Source: Cenococcum geophilum (lineage: Eukaryota). From it: 64,000 nt of DNA. Shown one piece after another: positions 4,101 to 64,000 of this stretch (its first letter is position 1; the number at the start of each line of letters is the position of its first letter). The notes beneath the pieces are model-generated. The model was not told the DNA's origin. It searched no databases and saw only the letters and a list, made by a program, of their open reading frames with translations. The DNA lies in contig CP158635.1 in assembly GCA_050273025.1 (NCBI GenBank), positions 20,522,001 through 20,586,000 on the forward strand, written 5' to 3'. Position numbers and translations under genes: made by a program.

Positions 4101-7100
4101 GAATTAGAAGTACCCTATAAGAATATATTAGGCGCCAGAAGAGTAATAGTATAGGAATGCTAAGTATATATATAGATAGCATTTAATAAAAGTTTAGGAG
4201 TTAGGAGACTTAATACTTTAATTAAAAAGATTTTTTATAGAAGAATGCTTAAATAGATAATAGTAGTGGAAATGCCTAGAGAATATATATCTATAGTATA
4301 TTAAAGATAAAAAGTAAACTAGGTATTGGCTAAAAAGTAAGCTAAGTGCATAAGGATTAAGCAGCTAATAGTTAAAAAAAGTAAAGGCCTATAGGACTAG
4401 AGGGAGCTAGTAGTAGAGCCTTAAACCCTTAAAGGAATTTAAGAACAATACCTAAATTTAAGAGTTAATTAGTAAGATTAGTAGTTTAAAGTACTAATAG
4501 ATAGTGGAGTAATACGGAACCATATTTTACTAGTAGTAGTAAAAAGAATAGGATTACCTTATAGATAAAAGGAATAATTTTACCTATTAGTTATAATTTT
4601 AAGAGATCTAATAACCTATAGAGGAGGGATTATTAACCTTAAAATAGGACCTATTTAGATAACTATTAAAGGAAAATAAATTAAGATGTCTTTTAATATC
4701 CTACTATTAGGACGGGATAAGGCAGTATTAGGAATACCTTAGTTATAGAAATATAACCTAAAGATTAATTAGATTATAGGTTAGGTTAATATTAGGGATA
4801 CTTAATGCTATAAGATATAATAGTAAACTAAGTTAATATAGTACTAAGTTAGAGTAATATATAAAGAAACTAAGCGAGGCTTAAGTTATATATTAAAGAG
4901 ATACTATAAGTATAGTAAGAAACTGTAAAGTCTAGAAAGTAAAAAGCTGGTAGATTATATAGTATAGGACTATAAGATAAAGTTAAAACTAGGAATAAGT
5001 CTAAGGTTCTTTCTAACCTATAAGCTTATTTAAGAGAAGTTAAGAATACTTAAAGAGTTTATTTAGGAGAACTTATAAAAGGGATATATTAGACTATTAT
5101 AGTTATTAGTAGGTTATCCAGTATTATTCGTACTAAAGAAGAATAGAAAACTTAGGCTATATATTAACTATAAATAGTTAAATAGTATTACTTATAAGGA
5201 TAGGTATCCTTTACTTTTAATTAGCAAAATTTAAGATAGGATAGGTAACGCGCAAATCTTTATAAAGATAGATCTAAGATAGACGTACTATTAGATTAGA
5301 ATTAAGGAAGATAATAAATAAAAGGCAGTCTTTAGGTTAAAGGAGGGACTATATAAACTATTAGTTATATAATTTGGGTTAATAAATATACCAATAACAT
5401 TTTAAAAGAGAATTAATAGTATATTAGGAGAATACCTTAATAAGTTTATTATAGTATACCTTAACAACATTATTATCTATTTAATAACCAAGGAAAAATA
5501 TAGAGAACATATTAAATAGGTCTTAAAGAGACTATAGGAAGAATAGATACTAGTAATAATTAAGAAATATAAGTTCTTTATAAGAAAGACCGATTTTATA
5601 AAATTTATTATTAAACTAGGTTATATTAGTATAGACCTAAAGAAAATTAAAGCTATAGTAAGTTGGTAAGAATTAGAGAATATAACGTAGTTAAGGTTAT
5701 TTTTAGGGGTTTATAACTACTATAGAAGTTTATAGTATAGTAGTTAAAGAATATTAAACTATTTACTAGGCTTATAAAGAAAGAGAAACTATAGGTATAA
5801 GGAGATAAATAAAGGAAGTTATTTAAGAAACTTAAGGAGTTATTTACCTAGGAGCTAATCCTTAAAATCTATTAACTAGGACTAGATATAGTTATAAAAA
5901 TAGATATATTAAACTTTATACTAGGAGTATATTTGCTATAAAAGTATAAGAGCGTATAACATTTAGTGGTATATTATAGTTGGAAGATATTACTAAAATC
6001 TATATTAAAGAAGTATTTATAAGGCATAGAGCACTAAATAAGATTATATTAGATAGAGATTTAAGATTTATCGCAGTATTCTAAAAGGTATTCTTAGCGG
6101 AATAAGGAGTTAGAGCAGTAACTTCTACTATATATTATCCGCAGACGGACAAATAAACGGAAAGATTAAATTAGATGCTAGAATAGTATCTAAGATATTA
6201 TATTAATTATACACATAATAATTAGGTATTAATATTACTAGTTATATAGTTTATATATAATACAACACTATAAGAAAGAATAGGCATATTACTATTTAAG
6301 GTAAATTATAGATATAAGCTAAGAATATTGTTATTACTATAATAAGTAAAGAAAACGAGTAGTATAGCTAAAGAAAAAATTAAGATATTAATAAACCTTT
6401 ATATAGACCTTATAGAATTGGCGAAAAAGGTATAAGAAAGAATAAAAAGGTACTATAATACTAAGAGATCTAAGGGACTAGATCTTAAGGAGGGAGATAA
6501 AGTATAGCTACTATATAAATTTTTTAAAAGTTAATAACTAAGTAAGAAATTAGACTATGTTAGATTAAGACCTTTTAAAATTATATAAAGGATTTCACTA
6601 GTTACGTTTAAGTTAAACTTACTAGCTAAAATAAAGATCTACCCTATATAGTATATTGCAATACTAGAGCCAGTATATAGGAATATTAAGCTACTAATTT
6701 ATAAAGTAGATATGTATAGAGGATAAGAAGAAGATAAATAGTAAGTTTTAAAAATTATTAGTTATAAGGATATTAATAATAAAATATAGTATAAGGTTAA
6801 GTAAATAGGCTATAATAAGACTACCTAGGAACTATTATAGAATTTAAAGAATATTATAGGCAAGGTATAGGAGTATTAAAAGAAAATAGGTTAGGTAATA
6901 TTAAGAAAGAGCCTAAAATAAAAGGATTAGTTAAAGGTAATAAACGAGCTAGATTATCTAAGGGATCTACTACTAGTATACTAGTTGTTTCCGCCTCTAC
7001 TTAATTAGAATCCCTTTTAGCCTCCTTAGCCTTAAGTTTAAATAGACCTTACTCTACTAAGCAAAGCTCTTTTAAGCGTACCTTTTTATAAACCTTTATT

Positions 7101-8033
7101 AAACGGCTTAGGCGAGTATAAGTATCTAGTTAAGCTTTTAGAGCCTAAAACGCCTTATTAAAACGACGCTAAACTTTAGTAAGGGCCTTAGCTAGCTTAC
7201 TCTCTAGTTTTTTAGCTGCTACTAATATATATAACCCTAGAATAGATTAGATAAAGAATTAGAAGGTTATAAAGAATAATAAAATACGTATACTTAGCGT
7301 TAGAAATAGATTAAATATTATAAGATAATTGTATATTCGCTCGCGTACACTTAATATAGGAAAAAGGTTAGTAACTATGTAGAGCTGTAATCGCAATATA
7401 TACTAGCTTTTTCTCTATATAATAAGAATAGGACGGTATAACTTCACTAAGTAATAGAATAAACGTTACTAGCTAGTTATAATAATTAGACACAGAGGAT
7501 TTAATAAAAGGCATTAGGAATAATAAAGGTTATTAAATTAAAGATAGGAATGCTATACCTTTAATAGATAACTTGGAGATAGAAGATATCTTTAAAAATA
7601 AAGATAAAAAGGAGGGGGATAGTATTACAGACCTTATATTAGCAGTAGTACGACTACTAAGGAAAGATATATATAGGTTAGTTAAGATAGTATAGGAGGC
7701 GCTAGAACCGATTAAGCTATAGGATAAGGGGTAGCTAAGTTATATAACTAGTTACGTTATAAGTTTAGAACGTAAAAATATAGGAATATAAGAACGTAAT
7801 ATACTAACGTACTAACGTACTAAACTCTTTACTATAGGGAGGAGTTATATATTTAAGGACACACGGTCTCTATAAATAGTTTCTCTTCTTTATAGTAAAT
7901 TTTAGAATATAATTAAAGTTAATCTGTTAGGTAACTACTCTACTAGTTATATTTATATTGTCGGCTATTTTATACCTATATACCTAGCCCATTAACAAGT
8001 CTACCGTAGTATTTCCTATAAGGCTTTATTATA
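1110..8033 (+). mobile_element. Ty3/Gypsy chromovirus-type LTR retrotransposon, RIP-inactivated, internally deleted
   Basis: LTRs 1110-1528 and 7623-8033; TSD AATAG; PPT AAAAGGAGGGGGATAG before the 3' LTR. gag from ATG 1568 with CCHC knuckle ~2565-2610; protease ~4495; RT YLDD-like ~5456; integrase and chromodomain to ~6900. Confidence 0.95.
7000..7514 (-). pseudogene. Antisense spliced accessory gene in Gypsy 3' region (Zn2Cys6-like + coiled coil), RIP-mutated
   Basis: ATG at 7514. De-RIP reading EVMPSCSRCxEKKLVCIAI...SCxECTRANMxxSC, then an intron (~7237-7290, CTAAT..TAG), then KVHKKVRSKELRLVEQGL. Homologous to 36480-37019. 3' end approximate. Confidence 0.7.
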
Positions 8034-9916: not shown

Positions 9917-10433
9917 TTGCCCCCCCCCTTTATTAGGGCTGGCCCCTAGCCCGTATACCTAAATTAATTGTTTTTATATATAAAAGGTAAGTAGTGCTAA
10001 AGCCTTACTTGTATAGGGAAAATAGGGAAAAATACTAGCTAAGCAGCCTTAATAAAAACCTTAACCTATAGCTAAAACCCAGTAGGAAAAAAGGCCTATT
10101 TAGGAAGGAAAAAAGCGTCTGCTAGTGGGGTAAGACTTAATCGTATATAATTAATCTTAAAGAGATAATCGCCTGCGATTAAGTCTTAATAGCTCTATAG
10201 CTAGTAACCATAAGAATATCCCTTATATTGCCCTACCCCCTTCTTATAGTCAGCCCCTAATTACCCTTACCTTACGGTAGAGGGAGATTATAGAGGGCTC
10301 GTCCCGAAAGGGGTTTGGAGAGATATCGGCATTTAACTATAATAGGATCTTATAAGCTAAGCCGTAGCTTAGGAAGAGATAACTGTACAGTTAAGTCTTA
10401 GCGGCCCTTAGGCTGATGACCGGAGAGTCTCCG

Positions 10434-13400
10434 TATAAGGGATATTATTGCGGATACCTTAGGTTGCCCTTAGGACAACCCCCAGACGCCCCTTAGATAG
10501 TTGCCGGTTACGTGCTGGAGGTATATGCCCGTAGTATATAGTCTCTACAATCCTAGAGGCCTTACCTCCTTAAGGATTTGTCTCTCTTACTAATCTATCC
10601 TATTCTACAATTGTGTTCTTATAGCCCCCTGTCTATAAGATCCCCTTATATTTAAATCCTTCCTACTCTTTTTTAGAAGGGTAGTCGGCTTTAAGGACCA
10701 GATTGTTTGTTTATATCTTTTATTTATAACTACTATCCTCCTTTAAAATCTCGTAATAACTTAAACGGAAACTCTACGGATACCTTATGGAAAGCCGTCG
10801 CGTAAAGGCAGGAAGGTCCCTCTAATAGCGAGAGATTGCGATAATATAACCCTTTAGGCAAGATGGCTGAACGAGCCCTAATACCTAGATGCTCTAGGAG
10901 CTCGAAGACTCTCGTATACCTATAGTTACCGTTAAGGAAAACGCAGACACCCTCTATAATGGTTATAACGCTACTAGAAAGTAACTGGAACCCCTCTAGC
11001 CCCACCTAGGCTAATTAGAAGATTAAGTGCCAAAGGCAACCCTAAGATCTTCCCCTAAGCCAGAAATGCTAGAGGAATATATTAACGCGTTTAACTAGGG
11101 ACCTAACTAGAACCCTCCTAGAAGACTACCGGCCTATAATTAGTATAGTGGCGGTATATAGACTGCTTATAAGCTAAGTAGGCCTACTCCTTTAGGAAAC
11201 TAAACCTAAATACTAACTTAAGACCCAAGGCTTATTAGGAAACCCGTACTAGCCACTAGTGCTAATACTACCTCTATAGTAGGAGCTTCTCTAGGCCTAA
11301 GTTTAGAAGGTTAAGAGCCCTATACTAATCTCCTTTAAAACAGATATCGGGAAGCTGTTGTAAGGCTCTCGGAAGCCATGCGGGAGGAAGCTACTAATAA
11401 ATATATTAGAACCCTTTAAGGGTAAATTTATATCTAGTAGGGTTTAATCTAAGCTAGGTAAATTTTTTTATAACCTAGTTAAGGCTAAAGGCTTCCTAGG
11501 GGCTACCTAGTACCTACCTAAGGAAGTATAGAAGACTTAGAGAGGCACCTATATAATAAACGGAAAAAGGATATAGACTAACTGGCTAAGGTCTTTAGTA
11601 GTTTAGAACTTTGTTATAAACCTAACGCCTAATAGCTAGACGATTAGGTTCGCGAGGTAGATAACTTCTTTAAGATGCTAATGATATAAGATAATACTAA
11701 AGAGTGTATATACTGGATTATTAGTAAGATTAAAGACCGATTACTAAACCAGATTGCGCTTAATTAACTTAATAAAGAGTAAATTATAATATGGCTATAG
11801 CTATAGACCTTCCTAAAGGGTTGGACCTAAGATCCGTATGTTATATAATATAACAATGCAGAATAATTCTAGAATAGTACATAGCTGGACCGTTAAGACT
11901 TCCGCCAGTTTATAAACTTTATAAAAACTCATGCTTAATAGATGGATTTAAAGCCCTTTAAAAACAAGGACGGCAGCGTCTATAAGAAGGAGAAGATTAG
12001 ATTTATCTAGGCTAGAATTAAGCTAGTAATTTATAATAAAATAAAGCGCGTAGAAGCCCTATTACGGATTACCGTATATACGGATTTTAAATAAGCGGTT
12101 CTAAACGCTAAGGATGCGGTAAGGAACTAGACCTCTTTTAATAAGAAGCTAGGGGGTTACTAAAAGCGCGGGCACTTTAGTAGTAATATAGGGCAGACTT
12201 AACCTTTAAAGAAGCCGTTCTTAAAGAGAACTTTAAAAGGGTTAAAGTTAGGAACCTTAAATAACGGGAAAGACTCCTAGGGTTAACCCGATACCCATCC
12301 GGCACCTTTATAGGAATACTCTAAAAAGTTAAGAGAAAACTCTAGAGGCAGATTCTATTGGAAAAATAAGTAGGGTAATAACCGCACTAACGATCTAAAA
12401 AAAGAAAAGCCCTAGTTATAGACCTCTCTTAGTTATAACTAGGGTAAGATATAGAAGAAGAGACTTTCCGTATTACTGTTAAGCTAGAAATAACACTCCC
12501 TATAGGTGAAGTATAATAGTTTTAAGCACTATATAATAGCGGCGCCGAAATTAATTTTATATAATATAATTTAGTAAAAGAGTATAAACTTATCCCATTG
12601 TAAAGGTGGCGGAAACCTATTATAGGCTTTCTAGATAAGTATTGGATTAAGCTATATAGTACCTATAAGCTTATAGTGTTAGTGGCCGATATATATAACC
12701 GTACTAAGGTAATCGGCCCGGAACCCTTCTAAGCGGTTAACTTTATAGGTTACGACCTTATTCTTAGATACCCTTAGCTTATAAAAGTAGATCTTAAGAT
12801 ACGCTTTAAGACGGGAGCCTTTAAATAGTAGAACGATAAAGATTTAGAAGGGGGTATATTACTAATAAGCCTAAAGGATATCCTAGAGAATATAGCCCCA
12901 GGCGAAATAGTGTACACTCTATATCTAAAGGAGTATTAAATTTAACCCCTATTTAATAGCAAGATAGGTATAGAGCCTAGTATAGGTAATAACCCCTTTA
13001 TAACGGAAACCCTATAGGGAACTGCCGGATAAGTCGCGGAGATATTATAGGGAGGCGGCGATCTTAAGGATCTTATAAGATACTTTAACCGCTATAGGTT
13101 ACTCTGGCTTAAGTAATATACAAAAAGTATACTACAGCACCTCAAACGCTGCATTAAGGAGTTCCTTACCCTCTATTAGCTACTATATAAAACGGTTTAA
13201 CGTATAGTGGCAACTATATACGAGCAACTATTATAGCGTATAACGCTGCCCGTAAGTATCCTAAGGGAGCTCTAAAACCTACCTAATAATAATATAGAGA
13301 ATAAACGCGACCCTAATTTGTTAAATATTCTAGTAGGCCTAAGGGACTTACTAAGGGTATTTTTAGGTAGGAGAGCTAAAGTCCTACTGCAGAACTTAGA

Positions 13401-28000: not shown

Positions 28001-29587
28001 GTACGGCTTAGAAGGAGGTTAAGAAGTTAATAACTTAGAGTACTAGCTTGCCGCTAAGATATATAACGTTAACAATAATATAGAAGTTAAAGTTGTAGTT
28101 ATCTTTAAGGGTAAACTTAAATTGGCTAGGGGGCTTCTGGTTTATTTAGTAGTAATAATAGTACTTTATAAGATACTTAATTGCCTTAACCTTAACTTTA
28201 TAGCCTACTTATTAAAGAACCCTAAGTAATTAATAAATAGATAGGTGGCTAAAACGATGGTGTAGTTAACGTAACTCTAACTTAGTTAAATGGCTCTAAG
28301 TAATACTTTTTTCTAGTTAATAAAGGAGTAACTAGGGGTAATCCTACTTACCTATAACGGGCACCCAATTATCTCCCTAAACGAGTATATTCTTAAGGTT
28401 ATTAAGCTTAATACCTAATTTATTTATATCTTTAATACAAAATAGAAATGGGGTATTTGTAGAAATAACGTAGAAAGTGATATGCCTTAAGGGGGTTTGG
28501 ACCCTAATTGTGCTAAAAGAGATTATAGTACCCTTACTAAAATAAATTGTATATTAGCCTGCCGTTAAATAGTTAATCTAAATAGAGCTATTAAGCTACT
28601 AAAGGGCTTGAACTTAAGGTTTTCCTACTATAAATACTCCTGCGGCTCTAGTATCTAGTATAATACTATAAAAAAAACATTCGCTAAGTATTTATTATTA
28701 AAGAAGAACGCAGAACTCTCCCTTAGCTTATTAAAAATATTTAACTTTATAATAGAATAGAGCGTAGATTAGTTATTAAGAATAGTAACGGTTTATATAC
28801 TATTTACCTTACTATACTTAGTAAAGTATTAGTTAGGAGAGTAGTCCTTAATTTCTATATCTATAAGGAGCTGTTTAGCCTTATTAACCTTACCCTTAAG
28901 ATCTTTTACGCCTTTATATTAAACTAGAAAGCTTTAAAAGTAAGCTATAGTGACCTTATAATTTCTAACGTTTCTTATACTTTAGCGAAACTTATTATAT
29001 ACCTCCTTTTATTTATTAAAAGAATGCCTAGTTAACTAATAATTCGGTTTCTTATAAACGTAGCACTTCTTTTAGTAATTACTTTAAAATAAACCTCTAT
29101 AAGGGCCTCCACCTTTACCTTATAGTTGTTAATTATACCCTCTACCGTATTATTTACCCTAGCTACTATATATTCGATTAGTCTAGTTATAATTATATTA
29201 GTTAGGCGGGTTGATTAAAGTAGGTTAAAGTTAGGCGTTAAATTGCTATACTTTTTAAGAGCGTAAAGTAGTGCTAATAGAAGATCTTAATTAAGTATAT
29301 ACTCCTTTATAAGTATTTATAGGATTAAAAAGTATAAGGTTATATTCTTTAACGCCTTAATATACGCTAATAATTTAATTACATAGGCTAAAATCCTCTT
29401 AATATAATTCGGATAAACTATGCTAAATTATCTAAAGTTAATTAAAGAGCTTTTAAAGATAATTAAGCTAAGGGATACTTAGGTTTATAGCAATAATCCT
29501 TAAAAAGGTAGTTTCTCTCTATTCTAATATATACTGCTACTTATTCTCTTTTATTTTAAAGTGGTATTTTAACTTATATATTATACG

Positions 29588-32500
29588 TGTTACGGACGCT
29601 TTAAGTATAATGTTACGACTACTTAGAGAAGAGTTGGAAGAAGCTAGTTAGTTAATAAGAGCACGGTCTAGGATGGATTTGGTAGAGCTATATAATAAGG
29701 AATGGTAATTAAGGTTACATAATATGCTACGTATTAAACGAGAGGAATGAGAGGAACTTACGTACCTTATATATAATACGTATATTACGTATAAGAAGGA
29801 TTTTATAGGAGTACGGTTGTGTATTTAAGGACCCTTAGTCCCTACCTAGATAGTTCCTTCCTTGTAGTAATTCTTAGAATATAATTAGAGTTAATTTATT
29901 AGGCAACCACTCCACTAGTTATTATTATGTTGTTAACTTTAATTTGTATTACCTATATACCTAGCCCATTAATAAGCCTACCGTAGTACTTGCTATAAGG
30001 TTCCGTTATATAATTACTACCTAGTTATAGTATTAAATATAGAAAGTTAAATAATATGCCACTAAAAGTAGCTACTATAACGCCATTGACGGCGGCAACT
30101 ACTTTAGGGTTAGGAGGTGACACTAATATAGCGGACACTAACTTATAACAACCTATAACGGTAGAACAATTATAAAAAATAGTTAACTAGTTAATAGAGA
30201 ATAATGCAGCACTTAAAAATAGGATTAATGGGATAGGTATAGTAAAGGTTAAGTTACTATCGATTGAAAGATTTTTAGGAGAGAGATTGAAGCTTAAAGG
30301 ATTCCTTATATAAATGCACTTTAAGGTCGCGTAAGAGGGAGTAAAGCTGGCGACACCTATAGATTAAATAGCGTACGCAGGGCTATTCTTAATAGGAAGA
30401 GTACTTAAATAGTTTAAGCCTTACCTTATAGAAATATAAGTAAATGGAATAATAACTATAAACCAAGAGGTACGGTTTATATTTTTAAGCTAGAACGGAT
30501 TTATAGAATAACTTACGTAAATATTTGGAGACCTAGAGGCAGTAGCTATAGCGGAAAGAAAACTCTAAGATATTACGCAATGAACCTTAGCAATTAAGTA
30601 TATAACGTAGTTTTAAATATTAGCAATATAAGTTAAGTGGAATAATAGGGCGCTTATGGCACAGTATAAGTAAGGACTTAAGGCTAAAGTTTAAAATATA
30701 ATTATCCTAATAGAAGATGCGGACACCCTAAGGGAACTAATAGATTAAGCGATAAAGATTAATAATAGGATCTACTAAAGGGAATAGACTAAGAGAGGTT
30801 AGGATAGAGTTCTATAGTTATATAAGACGCAGAGTACGTAACGACTAAAGCTAAGTTAGAAACTATGGTATGGCGCAGAGCTAATGGACCTAAGTAGTAC
30901 TAAAGAAGCCTATAAGAGATGGAGTAAGAAACTATAAAAACCTAGAGGTTAAGAATTTAGTAATTATAGGACTAAGAAGCAGAGGCTAAACTAGGGATCT
31001 TAACAGTAGAAGACGTTTAGGCGGACTTTATAGCAAAGTTAATGGTTTAAAGACGGAGCTTATATAAATTACGGAAAACAAGGTTACTTCGCGAGGGATT
31101 ATAAAGATGGTTAGAATTACTATATAATAAAGGGAACTAGACTAATAGTAGAAGACATATATGTATAGGGGAACGATAGTGTACTATAAGGAATAAAAGA
31201 GTATTCAATTAGAAGTTTTGCGTTTTGTTATAATAACGCATACTAAATTTATAAAGATGCTAAGTATAGCGTAAGCTATTAGCTATAAGAGCTAAAATCT
31301 ATAAAGTGTAGAGGAACTAATAAACCAGTTCGCAGATTGGATATTAAGGATAATAAATTTAATATAGGCGAAACATTTTATAATAATAAGGCGATAGAGG
31401 CGGCTTATTAGGAGCACGTAGACCTTAGAGATGTTATACTAGAGGTAAAGGATAATCCCACTATAGAATAGGGAACATTAGTAGGGATTAAGACCCTACT
31501 AGACACGATGTTTATCGCTTCGCGAGACACAAGAGAAGTAGAATAGCGAACTACTTCGGCACTTAATAAAGGCAAAAGGCTAAAGGCTTAAGATTCTTAA
31601 GACGAGATAAGAGACGACTAAGATTCTTAAAGTAAGATAAGGCACACCTAAGGACCTATAATGGACGAAAACCGATAAAGTAGGGCAGTAGCTTAGTTTA
31701 AAGATATATAAATAAGCTTGGGATAAGAATTCCTAACGGCATAAGATTCTTAAGACGAGATAAGTAAGATTTAAGACTCTTAAGATGAGATAAAAACACT
31801 ACGGACGCCTAGTTAGACTAAGGCGGGAGCTAAGCTTAAGTTAGAAGCAAGCTTAGGATTAAAGAATCTAAGAGACTAGCAATTTAGAGTACGAATTAGG
31901 ACACCCATAAGTAAGAGGTAAGGGGCTTTTTTATAGATTAGAGAATCTATAATATAAACAGTAGTTAGACTAGGAGATAAATATATGGACCTAGAGGACC
32001 TACTAGGAGAACGCAGTGTTTGGCCTAAAGATTAAAAAGTTAATACTAAGATTAAGAAGTAAGGTGACTTTAAGGATCTACTTATAAGACGCGAAAGAAA
32101 AGAAACTATGGAGGAATTTAGAGTAAGAATTACCTTATAGCAAGAACAGAAACTAGATAAGAGATCTAATATATTGGGACGTATAAGGAACAGAGCACTA
32201 GTATAAAGAATCACTAATAGACCTAGAATAGGCACACTAAGAGCTAAGTGGCTTACTAAACTGGAGTAAGAAGAGGATTTAGGGATTTCTACTAGGTTTG
32301 AGGAACGACATACTAAAGGCTGTTACGATATAGTAATAAAGAGATATTTCCTTATAAATAAGCCGTATATACTTAAGCAGTTATACCAAAAGTAGTATAG
32401 ACAACGACACAATAATAAGTAGGAAGATTTCTATATATGGTTAGACGAAAAAGTTATCTAAGACTACCTAATTATAGAAAAGGCTATGACTTATATTAAA

Positions 32501-35500
32501 GGAGCCTTAATTATAATATTAAAGGATTTAGAGGAGTAATTAGAGGACTAGAGAAGTAAAAGGCGAATCTTAGTACCTGCGAACGAAGTTGCAACGCTTA
32601 GATTAATACGAGATAGGTTTAAACTTAAAGATAAAGACGAGCTAAGAGTTGACCTAAGATATTAAGCATATTATACACTATTGTAGATAGTATATATGGA
32701 TGATGCGTGTAATATATATAGAGCACTAAAGGACAAAAATTGGAAGTATCTAATAAGGATGTATTGGAGGACGGATAAGGTAAAATATTAAAACGCTAAG
32801 TATATATATAGTTGGCACCTAGTAGAAGTTTAAGAATAAGGAGACTTAATACTTTAACTAGGAAGATTCCTTATAGAAGAATACCTAGATAAACGATAAT
32901 GGTAGGAATGTCCAGAGAATACCTATCTATGGTATATTAAAGATAAAAAGCGAACTAAGTATTAGCCTAAGATGGACTAAGTATAAATAGGATCTAGTAG
33001 CTAATAGTTGGGAAAAGTAGAGGCCTATAGGACTAGAGGGAGCTAGTGGTAGAGCCTTAGACCCTTAAAGGAATTTAAGGACGGTATCTAAATTTACGAG
33101 TTAAATGGCAAGATTAATAGTTTAAGGCATTAATAGATAGTGGAGCAATAAGGAACTATATCTCGCTAGCAGCAGTTAAAAGAATGGGATTACTATATAG
33201 ACAGAAAGAACGACCTTACCTATTAGTAACAATTTTAGGAGATCTAATAGCCTATAGAGGAGGTATTATTAATCTTAAAATAGGACCAATTTAGTTAACT
33301 ATTAAAGGAAGATAAATCGAGATATCTTTTAATATATTACTATTAGGAAATAATAAGGCAATACTAGGAATGCCTTAGTTATAGGAATATAATCTAAAAA
33401 TCAACTAGATTACAGGTTAAGTCAATATTAGGGATACTCAACGCCATAAGGTGCGATAATAAGCCAAGTTAGTATAATACTAAGTAGGAGCAACCTACAA
33501 AGAAATGGAAAAAGGGCTAAGCTATATACTAAAGAGATACCATAAGTATGGCAAGAAGTTATGGTTACTTAAGAGTAAAAAGCTGTTAGAGTATATAGCA
33601 TGGGACTATAAGATAGAATTAGAACTAGGAATAAGTCTAAGGTTCTTTTTAATCTATAAGCTTACCAAAGAGAAAGGTAGAGCATTAAAAGAGTTTATTT
33701 AAGAAAACTTACGGAAGGAATACATTAAACCATCGCAGTTATTAGCGGGTTATTCAGTACTATTTATACTAAAGAAGAATAGTAAACTAAGGCTGTGTAT
33801 TAACTATAGATAGTTAAACAGTATTATAAGAAAGGATAGGTATCCTTTACCCTTAATTAGCGAGATCTAAGATAGGATAGGTAATGCGCAAATCTTTATA
33901 AAAATAGATCTAAGATGGGCGTACTATTAGATTAGAATTAAGAAAGGCGACGAATAAAAGGCAGCCTTTAGGTTAAAGGAAGGACTGTATAAACCATTAG
34001 TTATATAATTTAGGCTTATAAACGCACTAGCAACGTTTTAGAAGCGTATTAATAATATATTAGGAGAATACTTGGATGAATTTATTATAGTATACTTTAA
34101 TAATATTATTATCTACTTAATAGCTAAGAAAGAATACGGAGAATACGTTAAATAGGTTTTAAAGAGACTATAAGAAGAATAGATACTAGTAGCAATTAAG
34201 AAATGCGAGTTCTTTACTAGGAAGACCGATTTTATAAGATTTATTATTAAACTAGGCCAACTTAGTATAGATCTAAAGAAGATCGAGGCTATAGTAAATT
34301 AGTAAGAACTAGAGAATGTTACGCAGTTAAGATTATTCCTAGGGTTTTATAATTACTATAGAAGGTTTATAGCGTAGTGGTTAAAAGATATTAAACTACT
34401 TACGCGATTAATAAAGAAAGAAGAACTATAGGTATGGGGAGAGGAATAGTAGGGACTCTTTAAGAAAATTAAAGAGTTGTTTACTTAAGAGCTAGTTCTT
34501 AAGATCTATTAACTAGGACTAAAAACGGTTATAGAGATAAATGTATTAGACTTTATACTAGGGGCATACTTTATATAAAAGTATTTAGATGGATGGCACC
34601 TAGTAGCATACTATAGTTAGAAAATAACACCACTAGAGTTAAACTACGATATCTATAATAAAGAGTTATTAGGTATAATTACAGCACTAAAGAAATAAAG
34701 GGCATTCTTATAAGGTATAGAGAAACTATTTATAGTTAAAATAGATTATAAGAACCTAATAGGATTTTTAATAATAAAGGAACTTAACTAAAGACAGGTT
34801 AGATGGGTAGAGATACTTATAGAATACTATTTTAAGATTTAGTATACCAAGGGTATAGACAATACGCGGGCCAATACGTTAAGTTAAAAGGCTGAATTAT
34901 AAAACGACAAGAAGCTATTAGGGGCTTTACTATAAAGAGACATAGACGGGTTAATTAGATATAATTATCCGAAAATCGCAGTAACTTAAGAAGATAAGCT
35001 AAAAAGAGTTTATAAGTTACTAAAAAGCTTTTAGGTATAAAGAATTTTAGAAGTATAGCTAGAAGATCTATAGTCGGATATATACGAAAACTAAGAAGTA
35101 AAGTATATCCCAAGAAGTATAGCGGAGTAGTTTATAGAAGACTTCTATAAGGGACTAACTTAAGGATATAATAGAGCCACGGGCTTAGTATTAAGACTCT
35201 AAGAGGAGTACATTATTAATGGAATCTAGAGGATAGCTAGGAAGGTCGCTAAGGAGTATTTAGATTGCTAAAGAAATAAACTAACGAGGTATAAGCTATA
35301 TAGAGGGCTATAACCTATTAAAATACCAGAGAGACTATAGGAGGTTATATTATAGGACTTTATTATTAAGCTACTAAAGTTAAGAGACCCTATTACTGGA
35401 CAGGATTATAACGCGATTTTAGTAATAGTAGACAAGCTTACGAAGTAGGGATACTTTATAGCCTATATAGAAGAAATCTTAGCAGAGGATATCGCTAGAA

Positions 35501-37535
35501 TCTATATTAAAGAAGTATTTGTAAGATATAGAGCACTAAGTAAAATTATATTGGATAGAGATCTAAGATTCGTAGTAGTATTCTAGAAGGTATTTTTAGC
35601 GGAGTAAGGAGTTCAAGCAGTAACTTTCACTGTATATTATCCGCAGATAGGCGGTTAAACGGAAAGATTAAATTAGATACTAGAGCAGTATCTAAGATAT
35701 TATGTCAATCACGTATAGAATAATTGGGTATCGTTGTTACTAGTTATATAGTTTACGTATAACGCAACACCTTAAGAAGGAATAGGTATGTTACTATTTA
35801 AGGCAAATTACGGATATAAGCCGAGAACATTATTATCGCTATATTAAGTAAAGAAAATGAGTAGCACAGCTAAAGAAAGAATAAAGACATTAATAAATCT
35901 TTATATAGACCTTATAGAATTAGCAAAGGAAGTATAAGAGAAAATAAAAAGGTACTATAATGCTAAGAGATCTAAGGGACTAGATCTTAAGGAGGGAGAT
36001 AAAGTGTGGCTATTATATAAAAATTTTAAGAGTTAACGACTAAGTAAGAAGTTAAACTACGTTAGACTAGGACCTTTTAAAATTACGCAGAAAATTTCAC
36101 CGGTCACGTTTAAGTTAAACCTACTAGCTAAAATAAAAATCTACCCTATATAATATATTGTAATACTAGAGCTAGTATACGGGAATATTAAGCTACTAGT
36201 CTATAAGGCAGACATATATAGAGGACAAGAGGAAGATAAATAGTAAGTTTTAAGGATCGTTAGCTATAAGGATATTAACGATAAAACATAGTATAAGGTA
36301 AAGTGGATAGGCTATAATAAGACTACTTAGGAGCTACTAGAGAATTTAAAGAATGTTATAAGAAAGGTATAGGAGTATCGGAAGAAAGTAGGTTAGGCAA
36401 CATTAATAAAGAAGAATCGCTAAAAAATAAGTTACCTAAGGGGGACCTAGGAAGAGCGACTACCGAACTACTTAGAGTTATTCCCTTTATAGGAAGAGAG
36501 TTGGTTCTCTTATTACTAAGTTCCTAAAGACCTTACTTTATAAGTTTTTACTCCTTAGAACGGACCTTCTTACGAACTTTCTTAAGACGAAGTAGCTGAG
36601 TAGACGCCGTAATGCAAGTATTTAGGGCCTTCTGCTTAGCGTTATGGGAACGCTTAAGCTTGGCAAGAGCCTGCGCTAGATTACCGTTAAGCTTCGCAGC
36701 CGTAGATTAAACACGAGACCCTATAATAAATTACTTAGGGAACTTAAAGACTACTAGGAGTTATAGGACGCGTATACTTAGCGTTAGAAGTAGAGCGAAC
36801 ATCGCAGGACGATTAAATATTTGCTTTGGTGCACTCCGAATAAGAGGAGGGTTGCTAAGATAAAGGACTCGCCAACGCAATATAAATTAACCCCTTTCTC
36901 GTATAACGAGAACACGGAGATAGTATGATTTTACTAAGCAATAATATAGCAGTAATAGTGCGGGCACGACGTTGCGCGTGTAAAGAAGAAGATGCTTTAG
37001 GTATAATAAGTAATGACATTAACTAAATTAATTAGGCGGACATTATACCTCTAGTAAACGACTTGGAGATGCTAGAAATCTTTAAGGACGAAGATAGAGA
37101 GAAGGGAGATAGTGTTACGGACGCTTTAAGTACAATATTATAACTACTTAGAGAAGAGTTAGAAGAAGCTAGTTGGTTAATAAAAGCACGGTCTAAGATA
37201 GATCCGGTAGAGCTATGTAATGAGGAATAGTAACTAAGGTTATATAACATACTATATATTAAATAAGAGGAATAAGAGGAACTTACATACCTTATATATA
37301 ATACGTATATTATATATAAGAAGGATTTTATAGGAGTACGGTTGTGTATTTAAGGACCCTTAGTCCCTATCTAGATAGTTCCTTCCTTATAGTGATTTTT
37401 AGAATACAATTAGAGTTAATCTATTAGGTAACCACTCCACTAGTTATTATTACGTTGTTGACTTTAATTTGCATTACCTATATACCTAGCCCATTAACGA
37501 GCCTACCGTAGTACTTGCTATAAGGTTCCGTTATA
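29588..37535 (+). mobile_element. Full-length Ty3/Gypsy chromovirus-type LTR retrotransposon related to 1110-8033, RIP-inactivated
   Basis: LTRs 29588-30010 and 37113-37535; TSD ATACG. gag ATG ~30056, CCHC ~31060-31102, protease ~33135, RT ~34093, RNase H, integrase, chromodomain ~36240-36380. Confidence 0.96.
36480..37019 (-). pseudogene. Antisense spliced accessory gene in Gypsy 3' region (Zn2Cys6-like + coiled coil), RIP-mutated
   Basis: ATG at 37019. PCSR(C)TRKGLI(C)IALASP...S(C)SECTKANIxSSCDV, then an intron (~36721-36776), then WSRVxSTAAKL...RLKKVRKKVRSKExKLIKxGL. 3' end approximate. Confidence 0.75.
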
Positions 37536-39183
37536 ATACGGTTAAAATTATATCCTTTTCCTACCAAATAGTTATAATAGAAGGTACTAGCTCAGCCCTT
37601 AAGTATAACGGAATAGGCGTTATAGTATTAATTAGACTCTATTTCTACTTTCTAGTAATAGTTATAGAAAATACGTAGTTTTAAATTAAGGATATTATAT
37701 AGTTTTCTACTAAACTTCTTCCCCTAATCCGAATAGAGCTTCGTAAGCTCTATAAGTAATTTTAAACTACCTTTAATTTAAGATTAAGATGGAGGAGGTA
37801 GGAGTTGCATTATAGGCTATAGTAGGGACGTAGGTCTAATCGGTAGAGTCTAAAGGTTATTAAATTGCGGAGTAATAGGATCCTATACCTGCTTTTATTA
37901 GGGTATAGTATCTAACATTAAAGCTATAGGTTAAATTGGATATAGAGGAGTTAAGGGCAAAGGTAGATTTGTCTTTAGAGGTGTATTACTTAAATTCTAT
38001 TATAAGTTAAGCTTTCTTATAGTGCGTAGTTGGTGCTTAATCTCTTATAGAGTCTATTCGTGCTCTTCTTTTACGTTAATAACCTACTCCTAAATATTAT
38101 CTCTAATAGTACCCCCGTCTATAGGTATAAATACTTTATACTCCTATAAGAAGTTACGGAAGTCTTATATAATATCCTTCTTTATAGGAGTTTATATTTC
38201 CTTTATTTATCTAATAAAGTCCTCCCTTATATAGTACTATAGTATAATATTATTATATTCGCTGTCTTTATAGTATGCTATATAGTATAATAAGAATCTG
38301 TTTAGGTCCTATTGCTTAGCGTTTATAAAGTTAATTATATTAGTATTCTATATTTCTAGGTTAATGTCCTTCTTATACTTCTTTAGATAGGTTAATGCCA
38401 TAATAGGTATAGAATCGACGGGGTGTTGTACGTTAAAGGTAGGTAGGATTTTTGGTTTTATAGGATCTCGTAGGTTTACTATTAAGAAGTAGGTAATTTA
38501 AGATATTATTTAACGCGTTTTAGACGTCGTTTAACGCGTTTTAGATGTTAACTTAGGACTATAGGTTTAGTAACACTTCTGACCTAAAGTACTCGACCAA
38601 ATCTTTATAAACGTGGTTGTTCTATATAATAAACGCAACTTAGTATCTTCTAGTACTTAGTAACACTTCTATTACTAGTTTTCCGTAAGTTTAAGGTAGC
38701 GCAGTATTGCTAGAATCTATTCCATATAAGCGCATATAGCACCCCTATACGAGACTATCTCTTCTATTCAAAAACCTAGCTACTCTATAGTTAACTATAT
38801 ATTTAACCACTAATTAGTATTAGTTATATAGGGTGACTTACCAATAACAACTACTCGAGTAGGTTATAATAATGTTGGTTAATAAAGCTTATTAATTGGA
38901 ATGAGAAAGGGCGAAGAGCCTAAGACTCCTCGCCACGCTAGTGCCGCGGCGTTACGTGACGACCGCTTGCCTCATTCCCGACAATATTAAAATAGAATAT
39001 TAATTTTTAGCTAAGGATTTATATTATAGGACCCTAGGTTTAGAATATAGAAAGGGATACTATATTAGCGCTATCCGTTAAAAGCAATATATAATTTTAA
39101 GATAAAGGTAACTGGCCGACTAGCTTGGCCGTTATAGCCTTTTACCTAGATAGGCTTCTCTAATTAGGTGGCTTTTATATTTA

Positions 39184-56481: not shown

Positions 56482-57651
56482 ATGATGGAAGAAGACGATG
56501 ATGAGTTCTACGGTCATGATGGGACGGCCAATGCTCCTGGCAGCGGTGATCAAAGCAAGCAGGACGCCTCTGCCAACGGCCAGGCCAATAACAAGGACGA
56601 CAACTTGGACGAAGAGCTCGAGTCTGGAGAGGAAGAAGAAGAGGGCAGTGATTCAGTATGCGCCGACGGCTCTATCTTTAGCTCTCACATTTACTGACTG
56701 TTTTTTCAGGATATCGAGATCATCACTGATCGACCCCAAGCTCAAAAGCCTATATCGTGAGTTCTCCCAATCTCAATCACCCCAAATTTTCAGCATACCT
56801 CTTGGAGTTACCTTGTAAGAAGTACTAACTATCATAGCCAATCCACGGTTGACTCTATAAAAGACCCCCGCGCTACCGACCAAACCTCGAGTCGCTCGCA
56901 AACACACCAGCAACAATCCGCACCCAAAGCCACCCTCTCAGCTCCCACCGCCCCTTCCGCACCACAGCAGCCAGGCTCCAGTTATCCCGAAGTGCGCACC
57001 TCCACAATTGACGTCAATGCCGACCCAGTTTACCCACCCGTCGGCAAGCCCATCTCCCAAACCGACATCGACGCCGACCTCGCGGAGAACACGAAGCCAT
57101 GGCGACTTCCTGGCGCTGACCAATCCGACTACTTCAACTATGGCTTTGACGAATTCACCTGGGAGATGTACCGGCAGCGACAAGCGACCATGACCGGCAC
57201 GCTCGCGACCCAGAAAGCCGAAACGGCGCAATTCCAGCAAATGTTCGGCGGCGCGACGTCCGTCCCCTCGACCTCTCCCGCCCCGCCCGTCCCCGGCGCG
57301 CCCACGGGCCCCGCTGCCCAGCAGGCCAGCATGGCGAACCCCATGGCCGCGATGATGGGCATGCCCGGCATGCCCGGCAGCCAGGAGGAGATGGCCACCG
57401 CGATGCAGGCTGTCATGATGCAGCAGGGGATTACGGATCCCAGCCAGCTGGATTTTAATACCTTCATGGCGAGCTTTCAGCAGCAGATGGCGGGCGGTGG
57501 CATGCCCGGACAGCAGGCGCCGCAGCAGCAGCAACAGGCGCAGGCACAAGGCTATGGACAGGGCTACGGGAATTATGCGCAACAGCAAGGCGGAGGACAG
57601 CAGTATGGTGGAAGGGGACAAGGTGGACGCGGTGGAGGGAGAAGATGGTAG
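56482..57651 (+). CDS. FIP1: Pre-mRNA polyadenylation factor Fip1 (exons 56482-56655, 56710-56756, 56838-57651)
   Basis: Acidic N-terminus, DIEII motif, Fip1 motif KPWRLPGADQSDYFNYGFDEFTWEMY, Q/G- and RGG-rich tail. GT-AG introns with branch sites keep the frame. Confidence 0.93.
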
Positions 57652-59409: not shown

Positions 59410-62400
59410 CTATTGGAACACGTAAATTATGCCAGACCTGTCCACCGATATAATCATACCATAAGGATACTCCAATAAAGCTACATCAAGAATATTATCT
59501 AGATGACTTCTCAACAGGTGTTGCTGCTGCAAGGAAATAATAGACGACCTAGACGGCTTTGTAGAACCCCTCCTCGCTGACGTATTAGGGGTTCGGCTGC
59601 TATCTCGGACGTTGGAAGTCGACGACTGCTGGCCTTGTGGCTGTGACAGCAGCTCAGTAACAACAATGGTCTCCTGATTCGGCTGGCTGATGTTGTATTG
59701 CGGCTTAGACTCCTCTAGTTCTAGGCCGCTGACAATCATGGACGCTTCATAATGAGCAGTATCCCAGTATCGGACTTTCCAATCAGGGCCCGCAGTGACT
59801 AGGAAGAATTGTTTTGGATCGCTTCCATCGTCGGGAGGTTGTGTGCCTATCGCGAGGGATCGGATACCACGATTGATGCTTGTGCTACTTGTAGGCTCCA
59901 GTGATGTAGCGAAGCGGCCTAGCATGCCACCTGCCCTTTCTTCATCCACATCAATCAATGTCATGCTTTTGGGGCTATCCTTGCTCAAACCTGTGCGGTA
60001 GATTTCCTTGCAGAGGAGCTTCTCTAGATCCCAGACCGTTACTTCACCTTGGCCGGTACCGCCTGCGATGTATACCTTGCCTTTGCGTGATCGAACTGGC
60101 TGAAGAATTATCCGATGTATAGGAGATGAGCCGTGGAAGCCCCAGGCTTTAAGCCGCAGCTTGAATCGAAGATCCCAGAGATCTATCACACCATGAGTAG
60201 TGCCTAGAAGTAGCCAGTGATGTCGTTTATCGATACAAAAACAGGTTGGTGTACCGTGATGCAGAGGGTTCTGAAGCACATAGAGCTCGGCCATTGTTCT
60301 CAACTCCAAGGCAATAACTCGCGAAGTATTGGTGGCCAAAACCAACGTTGACTGAGTTTCGCTCTTGTAGTGCTCAGACCAAACAGCATACTCGCCATGA
60401 CGAAGTTGGTGTTGCCGTAGAACTTTCAATTTTCCGTATTTCGTCCCACCTTGCACTTGGCTGTAATCCACTTTGACCACGTGGATACTGCCATCAGTAC
60501 CCGTACATACGAAACAGTAGGTATTTTCGACAAACACGAGGCTTGAGGCTTTCGTACTCTCAGCCAGTCTGTAAGTTTGTCGGGATCGATGTGCAATATT
60601 TCGTTCCAAACGCCCAGAGTCCCAGATTTTGACGGAACCGTCGTCAGACCCAGTAATAAAGAACGAGTGATCTGGCGCAACAAGAACACGGCTAATAGCA
60701 GCGGTATGTTCGCCCATCATAGCCACTAGTGTTCCTTCAGGGCGCCATGGATTGGTGGATGAGGATGCTTGACCGTTACCACGCTTAATGGGTAGACGCC
60801 TGCTATTTGGTTGTATCTGCATCCCAAACTCAACCTCATCAACTGGATAGTTCTCTAAATAAAGAGAGTCTAGTAGTTTCAAAATACTAGGATCATTGCC
60901 AGTATAGTTATGCGCATCTTTGTACTTGATCCTCGAAGGGCTCTTCCGGTGCTGTTCTTGGGCAACTGCAAGCTGGGACTGCTGCCGACCTCTTGCCATG
61001 AAGTCGCGTTGGCTTGCACCGTCAACCTTACCGAAAGCATTCGTCGAAGTTGTTCCAGTCTCAGGAAGAGCCTTGTTGTCGTTGGGATTTAACAGACTTA
61101 TGGCGCTATTCCTATGCCGAACAACATGACTATGTTCGCCCAGGGTGATACCGCCGATGGAGCTAACTGGAGATTGTCCGCCAGGAGAATCATTGCCTTT
61201 GGGTACCGATCTAGGTACTTGAAGAGAGGTACGACGAAGTTCAACATCAGAGGAAGGCGAGTCTTGAGCTGATCGTAGTGCGCCAGGCGATGACGATAGG
61301 CTAGGTAGAGTCGGTGTAGAACTCGTTCTCATGCCAGTCTCACCTCGTACTAGTTTGTCGACCTGAGTATTTGCATGAAGCCTCTTTCGATGAGACAGGT
61401 GACCATCCTCAGAGGTGGACGCGTCAAGCAAAGCGTCAGCAATTGTACGGGGCTGCCTCTCCTCGTTTGCTGAAGTTTCCCCATCTTTGACTTGTGCTTT
61501 TTCAAAGACCTCCTTATCATTATCAAACAAAACTGTTTGAGGAATGATATCTAGGTCTTTTAATGCAATGATGTTGTTGAAATTTGAGGGGACCGTATCG
61601 GGATCGTCTTTTCGTCTGCGGTGAGCTACCCGCCAAATGAACTCTCTGAGAGCTACAAGCTTAAACTCATCTTCAACGCCCATACCAGCATTCCGCAGAC
61701 GAGTGAGCCATTGGTCATCCTCTTCATTCTTCGACAATCGGCTGAGAGCTTTTGGCCCAAGGTTTTTGGCAGAAACTGTTAGTATTGAATCTTCAGCAGA
61801 TCCAAAAGAGAAGGTTCGTTGCTGCTTCGCTGGTATCCAGAACAGCCCTTTCTCAGATTTCATGGCCCAGGTCGAAGCCATATCTAAAATCAGTCTTGGT
61901 AATGGCTTCTTCAGCGAATCTAGAAGCCTCAATTCAGAAAGATCCGAAGGAAGCACTTTAAGATAGGTTTTGATGAGAGGAAGGACAATGCTGTGGGTAT
62001 CAGCAATCGACAGAAACTTTGCAGCAGAGGATATAAAATGTGCGGCGGCTTCTCGAATCCAAATGTTCGGATGCATTGTGAAGCGTCCGACGATATCAAC
62101 CAATTCCCAGGTCTTGGATCGCTGGAACAAACCAAGCTCTGCCATAGATGAGAACGATCTCAGGACCCTTTCCACAACAAACTCCTCCGGGTCCGTCAGT
62201 GCCTGAACCATTAACGGCAGAATAAATTCTTCAAGACTTGGACCCCCAACATATATTGCTACACCAACGATAGTCTCGAAGAAAGCGCATTTCAACATCC
62301 AATCGCGGTCATTGAGGTAGGTATTCAGATGGCTTAGTATAACGTCGTTCGCTTTAGTGCTTCCAAAAAATACACACAAAGTCGAGACAGATCCTAGCAT

Positions 62401-64000
62401 AGCTCGTCGGACAGCCGAGTCGCTGTCTGTCAAAAGGGCTTTAGTCTGGACTTCAAATTGTGATACAAGGTCGTCTCGAGCTACATCAAAAAGAGTTTGA
62501 TACACAGAATGACTCATACTGTCATCTTCAGCTTCAGGATCGCTGGTGGGTAAAGACCCGTCAGCACGTAGTGCCTGCATCATATCCAAGAACCTAGATG
62601 CGGTGCTGGCCAATGTAGCCATACAAGAGGCATATGTCATTCTTACCAGGGCACTTGGTTTCGTCGGCGATCCAGGCGCGAAGGGCTGGAGTCTTGGAAG
62701 TATGTATTCTGGGAAGATGTATGCGTTAATTGGCGAGACAACGGAGACAAGAGCAAGCTGTTTCACAGTAAGTTTGCTAAAAATAAAGAAAATAAAGTGA
62801 AGTTGGACGAAAAGGGATACGTACAAGCTGAGTCAAAGTGCGAAGTGCTGTTACCTTTACTAGGTCTGATTTATCGTTCAAGAGTGTCATCACGTATGGT
62901 AGAATACGATCAAGTTTTGCCTCATCTGTGGTTCTTTCCGCGAAGGCTAGCAATAGTTCACATGCGCGAATGCGAGCAGATGCCCTAGCTGTGCCCCTTA
63001 GGGAGGATACAACAATAGTGAGGAAGATGAGAGTTCCGTCATCTACCGATTTTCCTGAAGTAGGCGAGGCTTGGTGCTGGTAGTTCGGTATGTTGATAAA
63101 AAGTGGGAAGAGGTCATTGTCTAATTTGGAGGTAGGTTGGGGTGCTCTGCTTGGCTCTTTTCCATTCTCCTGACCCAAGAAGTATGAGATCTTGTCGAAG
63201 TCGTTATAGATCTTCTCAATCCGGTCATCGGATTCTCCAAGGTTCTCGGTTCCTGCAGTCACTGGTCTTCGACCTGAGGTAGGATCCGTAATGGTGTACA
63301 TGTACTGCTGAAGAAATCCGTAGAAGTAATCTGGGAAGGCTTTGTGACGCCAGAAGTTTAAATACTCGTCCGCTGAATATCTCGACTCAGGCTCTAATTG
63401 GATCATGTGGGAGACCATTTCGCGAATATCTTTATCGTGAATTTTGCTGAGGTGTGTGTGTTCAGGCTCATACTCACCTTGGCGATATTTAAACAGCTGG
63501 CTCAATGAGAAGATAGGGGTTTCTAGGAATAACTCCGCAATCACACACCCAACGCTGAAAATATCCATCGCCCAGGTGACACCTGTCTCTCCGGGCTGTG
63601 CTCCAGCAGATAAAAACCTCTCCGGTGCCAAATAGCATGTGCGACGCCCAGAGGTGTCAAAATAAAAAGAAAAGTCTGCAGGATTGTCCTCTGGGAGATA
63701 AGTAGGTTTAAACGACGAAGAAAAGTCTGATAGATACAACCAGTTCCAGGAAGTAACTAATGAATTTTCCGTCTTTATGTCACCGTGATATATGTTCCGA
63801 GCATGACAATCACGGACAGCACATAGTAGTTGGAACGAGAGCCATTTCTTCTCAATGTCCTCGAGAAATGGCCGAGTACTGTGTGCATCAGCTGCAGTTC
63901 AAGACAAATATTTGAAAACATACCTCATGCGATCATATAACGAACTATGAATGTATTGCCGGACTAAATATCCATTTGTGCTCGTTTCCAAGATGCGGTG
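59410..64000 (-). CDS. VPS15: Vps15 / phosphoinositide 3-kinase regulatory subunit 4 (kinase-HEAT-WD40); 5' end outside the window
   Basis: HGDIKTEN, DFSSSFKPTYLPEDNPADFSFYFDTSGRRTCYLAPERF, HEAT region (NDVILSHLNTYLND), WD40 repeats. Introns near 62757-62822 and ~63880-63923. Confidence 0.96.

Follow-up and report, generated by a model that had tools for sequence, protein, structure and literature searches.

The stretch of DNA analysed here, called the window throughout, comprises 64,000 nucleotides of a chromosome arm of the fungus Cenococcum geophilum (assembly GCA_050273025.1, contig CP158635.1, positions 20,522,001 to 20,586,000 of the forward strand). It carries a complete Ty3/gypsy chromovirus, element B, which has been damaged by repeat-induced point mutation (RIP). 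On the strand opposite gag-pol, between the chromodomain and the polypurine tract (PPT) that precedes the 3′ long terminal repeat (LTR), lies a reading frame of 202 codons in two exons separated by a 55-nt intron (37019-36356, minus strand). We read this frame as a real third gene of the chromovirus family, of which the window holds a copy killed by RIP, and put the probability of this reading at about 0.85. Comparison with intact relatives indicates that the gene is conserved, linked to the element and under purifying selection.

A preliminary description, made from the letters of the window alone, had noted six spaced positions on the minus strand, three of them TAT codons, that would once have been the cysteines of a zinc-cluster-like module. 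The pattern reads as claimed. From the ATG at 37019 the frame includes SPCSRYTRKGLIYIALASPLS*QPSSYSECTKANI*SSCDV, or in a fuller reading MSLLIIPKASSSLHAQRRARTITAILLLSKIILSPCSRYTRKGLIYIALASPLS*QPSSYSECTKANI*SSCDVRSTSNAK (asterisks are stops), and the module has the form C-x2-Y-x6-Y-x13-Y-x2-C-x8-C, with codons TGT at 36914, TAT at 36905, 36884 and 36842, and TGC at 36833 and 36806. RIP, which changes TpG to TpA, turns TGT into TAT. When Cys or Tyr is accepted at each position, the six frames of the whole window contain only two matches, at 36914 and 7430, both on the minus strand and both in copies of the element; in 200 block shuffles such matches averaged 0.055, or 0.015 with three or more cysteines. 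The cysteine pattern is confirmed and is not a product of chance.

The position of the intron is fixed because homologues spared by RIP run contiguously from the cysteine module into a long helix. Exon 1 ends ...AAC GCT AAG T and exon 2 starts GG TCT CGT, so that the spliced junction reads SNAK-W-SRV, compared with SDAE-W-SRVQ in the contiguous homologues. A candidate branch point, AGTAAT, lies 11 nt upstream of the acceptor. An earlier guess at the donor, GTATAC at 36777 with the acceptor AG at 36722-36721, did not join the frames, and the donor was placed at 36775 instead. Downstream of the module the helical frame reads STAAKLNGNLAQALAKLKRSHNAKQKAL..., and the gene closes with a stop codon at 36358-36356, just after a C-terminal LPNLLSSDTPIPFL that matches the C-terminus of a database relative, P0006. 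The preliminary description had placed the gene at 36480..37019; the gene runs past the lower bound of that range to this stop.

Six in-frame stops, three Cys-to-Tyr changes and a splice donor altered by mutation mark the window copy as dead. A relic of the same gene lies in an older copy of the element, copy A, and a pairwise alignment of the two shows no gap over the intron region. The coordinates are collected in Table 1.

Table 1. Antisense gene and carrier element in the window (positions numbered from the first letter of the window)
Feature	Position	Strand	Details
Antisense gene, exon 1	36776..37019	-	ATG 37019-37017; 81 codons + 1 base; six-Cys module; stops at codons 55 (TAG) and 69 (TAA)
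Antisense gene, intron	36721..36775	-	55 nt; donor ATACGC, a RIPed GTGCGC or GTACGC; acceptor TTATAG
Antisense gene, exon 2	36356..36720	-	long helix, linker and conserved C-terminal LPNLLSSDTPIPFL; four in-frame RIP-type stops
Antisense gene relic in copy A	6854..7529	-	Y/Y/Y/Y/C/Y in the same columns; 5 of 6 Cys codons TAY
5′ LTR, element B	29588..30010	+	ends TG...TA (TA is RIPed CA); target-site duplication ATACG at 29583-29587
gag-pol, RIP-broken	30011..36440	+	protease, reverse transcriptase, RNase H, integrase, SH3_Tf2-1, chromodomain
PPT AGGACGAAGATAGAGAGAAGGGAGATAG	37085..37112	+	66 nt upstream of the antisense ATG in the minus-strand reading
3′ LTR, element B	37113..37535	+	target-site duplication ATACG follows at 37536-37540

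Relatives, intron and selection

The genomic copies compared are the two in the window and those on metagenome contigs. Pfam found nothing relevant on the RIPed window translations, and a word-based search of proteins, run with exon 2 in its RIPed state, scored none of 523 candidates. A HMMER profile of the two window translations of exon 2, run against 1.84 billion representative proteins, retrieved 60 proteins that passed E ≤ 1e-3, of which eight also passed E ≤ 1e-10, and follow-up searches found further relatives. All 16 relatives that were looked up come from environmental assemblies of JGI or ENA; among these 16 there is no useful name, no NCBI record and no use of the name brtn, an antisense gene discussed below.

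Two relatives, P0068 and P0071, are free of RIP. Both have Cys at all six places and read IMPSCSRCAKEGLVCVAIAAPAGRQPSSCAECTRANMRSFCDVRSVSDAEWSRVQSAAAKLDGEL, and at the predicted splice junction SVSDAEWSRVQ runs straight over it. Exactly the 55 nt of the intron are absent, and the junction is spanned, in six proteins (P0006, P0008, P0068, P0070, P0071 and P0074), the intron-less proteins lying on contigs of 0.9-1.4 kb in environmental assemblies. In six others (P0007, P0020, P0031, P0058, P0065 and P0066) the frame enters the intron, as expected of genomic DNA. The contig L001 also looked intron-less in tblastn, and was rejected as such since it reads into the intron and has frameshifts.

A scan of metagenomes by protein alignment located the gene at 75 loci in six data sets, mostly in one long-contig set. 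In 92 of the 93 copies with a C-terminal match the gene stands tail-to-tail with an integrase-chromodomain frame on the opposite strand, which ends at the 3′ end of the gene (an apparent 'overlap' of 16-25 nt in the copy table is an artefact of the point at which the pol query was cut). For closer comparison we aligned 83 sequences, namely the window gene and 82 near-full-length copies out of 105 blastn pieces, 23 partial ones being dropped; the 82 copies are 68-79% identical to the window gene. Throughout this alignment the six cysteine codons are only TGY or TAY, which together with the cysteines of the un-RIPed homologues bears out the proposal that the three TAT codons of the window were formerly Cys. 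Individual copies retain anything from six cysteines (five copies) down to none (nine copies). The intron is 55 nt long in 83 of 83. The view of an antisense, intron-containing gene belonging to the element is upheld. The intron acceptor is YAG in 80 of the 83, and the donor is GTGCGC in 17 copies, GTACGC in three and a RIP derivative in the remainder.

In 78 aligned copies RIP has turned the ATG start codon into ATA (the window retains ATG), and there are between 0 and 15 stops per copy. The length of the coding sequence is a multiple of three in 78 of the 83, despite nine length classes of exon 2. Two copies, L002 and L003, which come from other data sets, are fully open with GT..AG introns, and these less-mutated copies, to which the preliminary description had looked for a decision, keep both the six cysteines and the open spliced frame. 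The de-RIP consensus that it had also suggested, here a simple one of 81 copies, agrees with the reading but still has four stops; these are consistent with glutamine codons (CAA/CAG) that were RIPed in more than 90% of copies, and the consensus adds little.

Selection can be estimated from the two open copies. Over the antisense gene L002 and L003 differ by 0.63 synonymous (dS) and 0.093 nonsynonymous (dN) substitutions per site, a dN/dS of 0.147 and the lowest of the six frames tested, with 0.062 for exon 1 and 0.227 for exon 2. Counted by codon position (1/2/3), the differences number 8/3/27 for exon 1 and 14/14/38 for exon 2, and one indel in the helix of exon 2 is exactly seven codons long (QEAAAAQ), which is one heptad. 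The dN/dS ratio was a further check put forward in the preliminary description, and its outcome favours the gene.

The predicted protein and alternative readings

The product is about 200 residues long and consists of a short N-terminal stretch, the six-Cys module, a helix of about 100 residues, a Ser/Pro-rich linker and a conserved tail, LP..F..DTP.PF. The spacing of the module, C-x2-C-x6-C-x13-C-x2-C-x8-C, is invariant in eight un-RIPed sequences. Within the helix lies an invariant basic block, RLEKVREKVRSKEW, and in the longer form RLEKVREKVRSKEW(K/R)LVEQGL it is the most conserved block. In L012 (~10380-10440) this block is expanded in tandem and in frame (REKV REKV REKV REKV), and exon 2 measures 425 nt. 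An AlphaFold model of P0071, from a 20-row alignment, has a single helix at residues 98-199 with a predicted local distance difference test (pLDDT) above 95 and a disordered tail; the helical segment that had been foreseen after the intron is thus present in the model. The ESM Atlas offers leads rather than tests: the neighbours of the whole protein are clusters of ~200-residue proteins of Ascomycota, the nearest (204 aa, score 0.92) being auto-named 'Zn(2)-C6 fungal-type domain-containing protein', and the cysteine module alone gives scores below 0.9.

Could the frame be something other than a gene of the element? One suspicion is that AT-rich RIPed DNA produced the pattern by chance, or that a fragment of a host gene was captured once and has no role in the element, since Tyr codons are common in RIPed DNA and the window copies are full of stops; we give this practically no weight: the pattern occurs only at two homologous sites against 0.055 expected, 92 of 93 copies (75 loci, six metagenome data sets) share its place and orientation, and dN/dS is 0.15 between copies at a dS of 0.63. 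A further alternative is that the antisense frame, with its cysteine pattern, is a shadow of sense coding, and that the true product is a C-terminal extension that makes pol much longer. Past the chromodomain, pol in L002 and L003 runs open across the complement of exon 2, intron and exon 1 and across the PPT, where it codes EDEDEE..., and it ends ~120 nt inside the LTR. This extends pol by ~330 codons past the chromodomain (L002:3784-4905; L003:29-1093, minus strand; equivalent in the window 36386-37230, plus strand), and the parts of the region present in L068 and L001 lack stops too, L001 having one frameshift. When synonymous codons of the antisense exons were permuted, with the antisense protein and its codon usage kept, the sense frame was open with P 0.056 for exon 1 and 0.004 for exon 2 in L002, and 0.11 and 0.0135 in L003. 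However, the sense-frame dN/dS in sliding windows, 0.01-0.2 in pol, climbs to 0.49-0.92 across exon 2 and stands at 0.25-0.40 across exon 1, compared with 0.23 and 0.06 for the antisense frame, and the excess of changes in exon 2 (38 of 66) lies at antisense third positions, which are sense second positions. In the reverse test, the antisense frame of exon 2 is open by chance, given the sense protein, with P ~0.01 (exon 1, P 0.78-0.83). Deleting 55 nt would also shift the frame of pol, yet six database proteins lack exactly those GT..AG-bounded nucleotides. Pfam finds nothing beyond Chromo on the sense tail. That the sense extension is the sole true product is accordingly very improbable, and dual coding, with both frames kept open, fits better than either frame alone. 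Our own reading is that the constrained product is the antisense protein, the sense frame being kept open with little regard to the sequence it encodes. As pol is open across the whole gene in intact relatives, both strands of the region are probably read there. The sense frame is perhaps held open to spare the genomic RNA a long 3′ untranslated region.

If the frame is an antisense gene, as we prefer, there is still the question of what kind of protein it encodes. The preliminary description had likened it to the GAL4-type binuclear cluster with its dimerisation helix, and a true Zn(II)2Cys6 member, with a binuclear cluster, a dimerising coiled coil and CGG-type sites, is the strongest form of that reading. 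GAL4-type factors combine a DNA-binding cluster with a dimerisation coiled coil, and the product resembles them in its N-terminal six cysteines with 2-6-n-2-m spacing and the long helix directly downstream; the six are invariant, stand in three CxxC-type groupings and have a Pro three before Cys4 and a Lys two after Cys5, and the auto-name of the nearest Atlas cluster, as a lead, points the same way. The Zn(II)2Cys6 signature is C-x2-C-x6-C-x(5-12)-C-x2-C-x(6-8)-C, and the loop between Cys3 and Cys4, 13 residues, is one residue over this range. At ~200 residues the product also lacks the middle homology region of fungal transcription factors. The profile Zn_clus (PF00172) is touched by most members, five of eight at E ≤ 0.1 with a best of 0.0052, but each score is below the gathering cut-off of 21 bits: 17.0 (L002) and 14.9 bits on exon 1 (E 5e-3 to 0.03), 13.6 for P0068 and 8.1 for P0071. 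What is matched on exon 1 is only profile positions 18-37, on the first half of the module. DUF3716 (PF12511), a family for which we know of no function, matches un-RIPed exon 1 slightly better and over its full length (positions 3-59 of 59), with 20.1 bits for L003 and 18.6 for L002 and E-values of 6e-4 and 2e-3 on the two; its cut-off of 22 bits is not reached either, and three of eight members match at E ≤ 0.1. A sequence-profile search of the PDB returned no GAL4-type chain at E ≤ 10, and the motif repeated in the LTR upstream of the gene is GTACGTGA rather than pairs of CGG. Membership of the GAL4 type now looks unlikely, and the module is best called Zn2Cys6-like and DUF3716-like, with neither membership proven by these profile matches.

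Several observations weigh against our reading of the frame as a gene with a folded, zinc-dependent product. No family reaches its curated Pfam cut-off. The cysteine module has a pLDDT of 45-60 in the full AlphaFold model and a mean of 49.5 when modelled alone from an eight-sequence alignment. Foldseek with the full model and VIA-align over 48,161 chains (Z ≥ 2) found no match, and the best hit of the PDB profile search, a Mediator subunit at E 0.047, lies on the helix. Zinc binding, DNA binding and dimerisation are predictions from the sequence, unproven as such. That the intron-less contigs are assembled transcripts is something we infer with their DNA unseen. Lastly, some of the conservation could serve the sense strand, whose frame is open across this region in intact relatives.

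Possible role and known systems

A possible course of events for the antisense gene can be outlined. Antisense transcription would begin at or near the 3′ LTR, which is the candidate source of the promoter. The frame of P0071 extends ~90 nt upstream of its first ATG, to about the border of PPT and LTR; an antisense start within the 3′ LTR or beside it would agree with this extension but is not demonstrated by it. The intron would survive retrotransposition because only the antisense RNA, and not the sense RNA of the genome, has it as an intron. The product would bind zinc, pair through its helix and serve the element in trans; its target would most likely be nucleic acid or chromatin, either as a control of transcription from the LTR or in evasion of silencing. 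We offer the part of a zinc-binding dimeric regulator tentatively, with the odds somewhat against it. In an RNA sequencing run (X21), 54 reads matched the window stretch, all partially and none at ≥95% likeness, and 0 reads covered 36482-36998 or an intron joint, which is uninformative for a dead copy.

In the LTR just upstream of the antisense gene there are tandem repeats of GTACGTGA / GTACGT(C/A)G, with at least four copies in L002 and L001 (L002:3725-3775; L001:~650-720; in the window 37290-37340, RIPed). They may be an enhancer or an array of binding sites.

The HBZ gene of human T-cell leukaemia virus type 1 (HTLV-1) is an antisense spliced gene with its transcription driven by the 3′ LTR; its product is a dimerising bZIP regulator. 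It serves here as a working analogy, since the chromovirus gene would likewise be antisense, spliced and next to the 3′ LTR, and its product might be a small nuclear factor that dimerises through a helix. There is no homology, HTLV-1 being a deltaretrovirus and HBZ having a bZIP rather than a cysteine cluster. The most far-reaching version of our proposal is a widespread lineage of ascomycete chromoviruses with an antisense, spliced zinc-cluster/coiled-coil regulator of their own, placed inside an extended pol frame so that ~600 bp are read on both strands, acting on the LTR or on host silencing as a counterpart of HBZ; as a whole this is doubtful.

To our knowledge extra genes are rare among LTR retrotransposons, and we know of no function for those of fungi. 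A gene model, intact relatives (L002 and L003), purifying selection and an outline of domains make the gene testable: for binding of zinc, for binding of the LTR, and for an aid to the element's transcription or escape from genome defence. Pol, open across the antisense gene, is a candidate example of antiparallel dual coding among retroelements. Since both copies in the window are dead, the window itself contributes annotation only.

An antisense accessory gene in this layout is already known. The preliminary description did not recognise a described chromovirus gene here, yet an antisense gene in this place of a fungal chromovirus, after pol and before the 3′ LTR, has been published as brtn of the element Boty (PMC7264820, PMC8365987). 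Antisense open reading frames (aORFs) in this position are reported for plant elements and for Boty of Botrytis and Sclerotinia (PMC7264820), and brtn is credited to Zhao et al. 2011, Virology 417:248 (cited in PMC7264820, PMC8365987, PMC4227169 and PMC5987419). Boty, like element B, is a chromodomain gypsy element of fungi, and its extra gene, placed in class aORF-3R (PMC7264820), is retained in most copies, with no function assigned in the cited passages. The window gene shares the features of that class: it lies on the opposite strand, between the pol domains and the 3′ LTR of a complete element, with 92 of 93 relatives alike, and coding conservation appears in the dN/dS of 0.147, in-frame indels in 78 of 83 and two fully open copies among the 83. 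The two genes are likened by their layout. A literature search for zinc-cluster antisense genes in fungal LTR elements gave only citations of brtn.

The plant elements concerned, Grande1, RIRE2, Retand and PvRetro13, have antisense frames between pol and the 3′ LTR that are conserved within families (PMC7264820, PMC11963269); their carriers belong to plant non-chromovirus lineages, and the likeness is one of position and orientation. The DUF3716 link ties the antisense gene to accessory genes of an unrelated fungal transposon, since the DUF3716 proteins REP9-1 and REP9-2 are described as accessory genes of REP9, a class II transposon found in Zymoseptoria tritici (PMC8232023). In both cases a fungal cysteine-rich module of ~60 residues occurs in transposon accessory genes, but REP9 is a DNA transposon and not an LTR element, and exon 1 scores 20.1 bits against the 22 bits of the family cut-off. 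The link hints at a transposon-associated protein module.

The carrier element and its setting

Element B has LTRs flanked by a target-site duplication and the order protease, reverse transcriptase, RNase H, integrase and chromodomain of a Ty3/gypsy chromovirus. Its two LTRs are 91% identical, and 38 of their 38 differences are transitions. On a read-through translation of the stop-riddled gag-pol, Pfam matches the protease, reverse transcriptase, RNase H and SH3_Tf2-1. The chromodomain, at ~36214-36385 on the plus strand, was placed by eye and similarity only; the stretch from integrase to chromodomain aligns to L002 and L003, where Pfam Chromo is found at E 5e-9 and 2e-9. Copy A, at 1339-8034, belongs to the same gypsy family, has suffered heavier RIP and is ~80% identical to element B. 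Contig pieces in their tens of thousands match 36200-37600 at 80-99% likeness in two DNA sequencing runs (X1 and X5), one of which is a root metagenome. The family is highly repeated wherever the organism occurs. In contig L002 a second gag-pol (L002:614-3520, minus strand) starts right after the terminal LTR of the first element, an arrangement that looks like a tandem pair of elements with one shared LTR. The gag region of element B contains a 61-nt direct repeat (31580-31640 and 31733-31793, 80% identity).

AT-rich DNA of the RIP type (GC content 25-40%) fills ~55 kb of the window. Near 56 kb the GC content jumps from ~40% to ~50%, and normal genes at ~50% GC follow the AT-rich block. At the edge of the block lie host genes for a Fip1-motif protein (56761-57651, plus strand) and a VPS15-like kinase (59410-63898, minus strand), the latter with Pkinase, HEAT and WD40 domains and split over two open reading frames, presumably by an intron.

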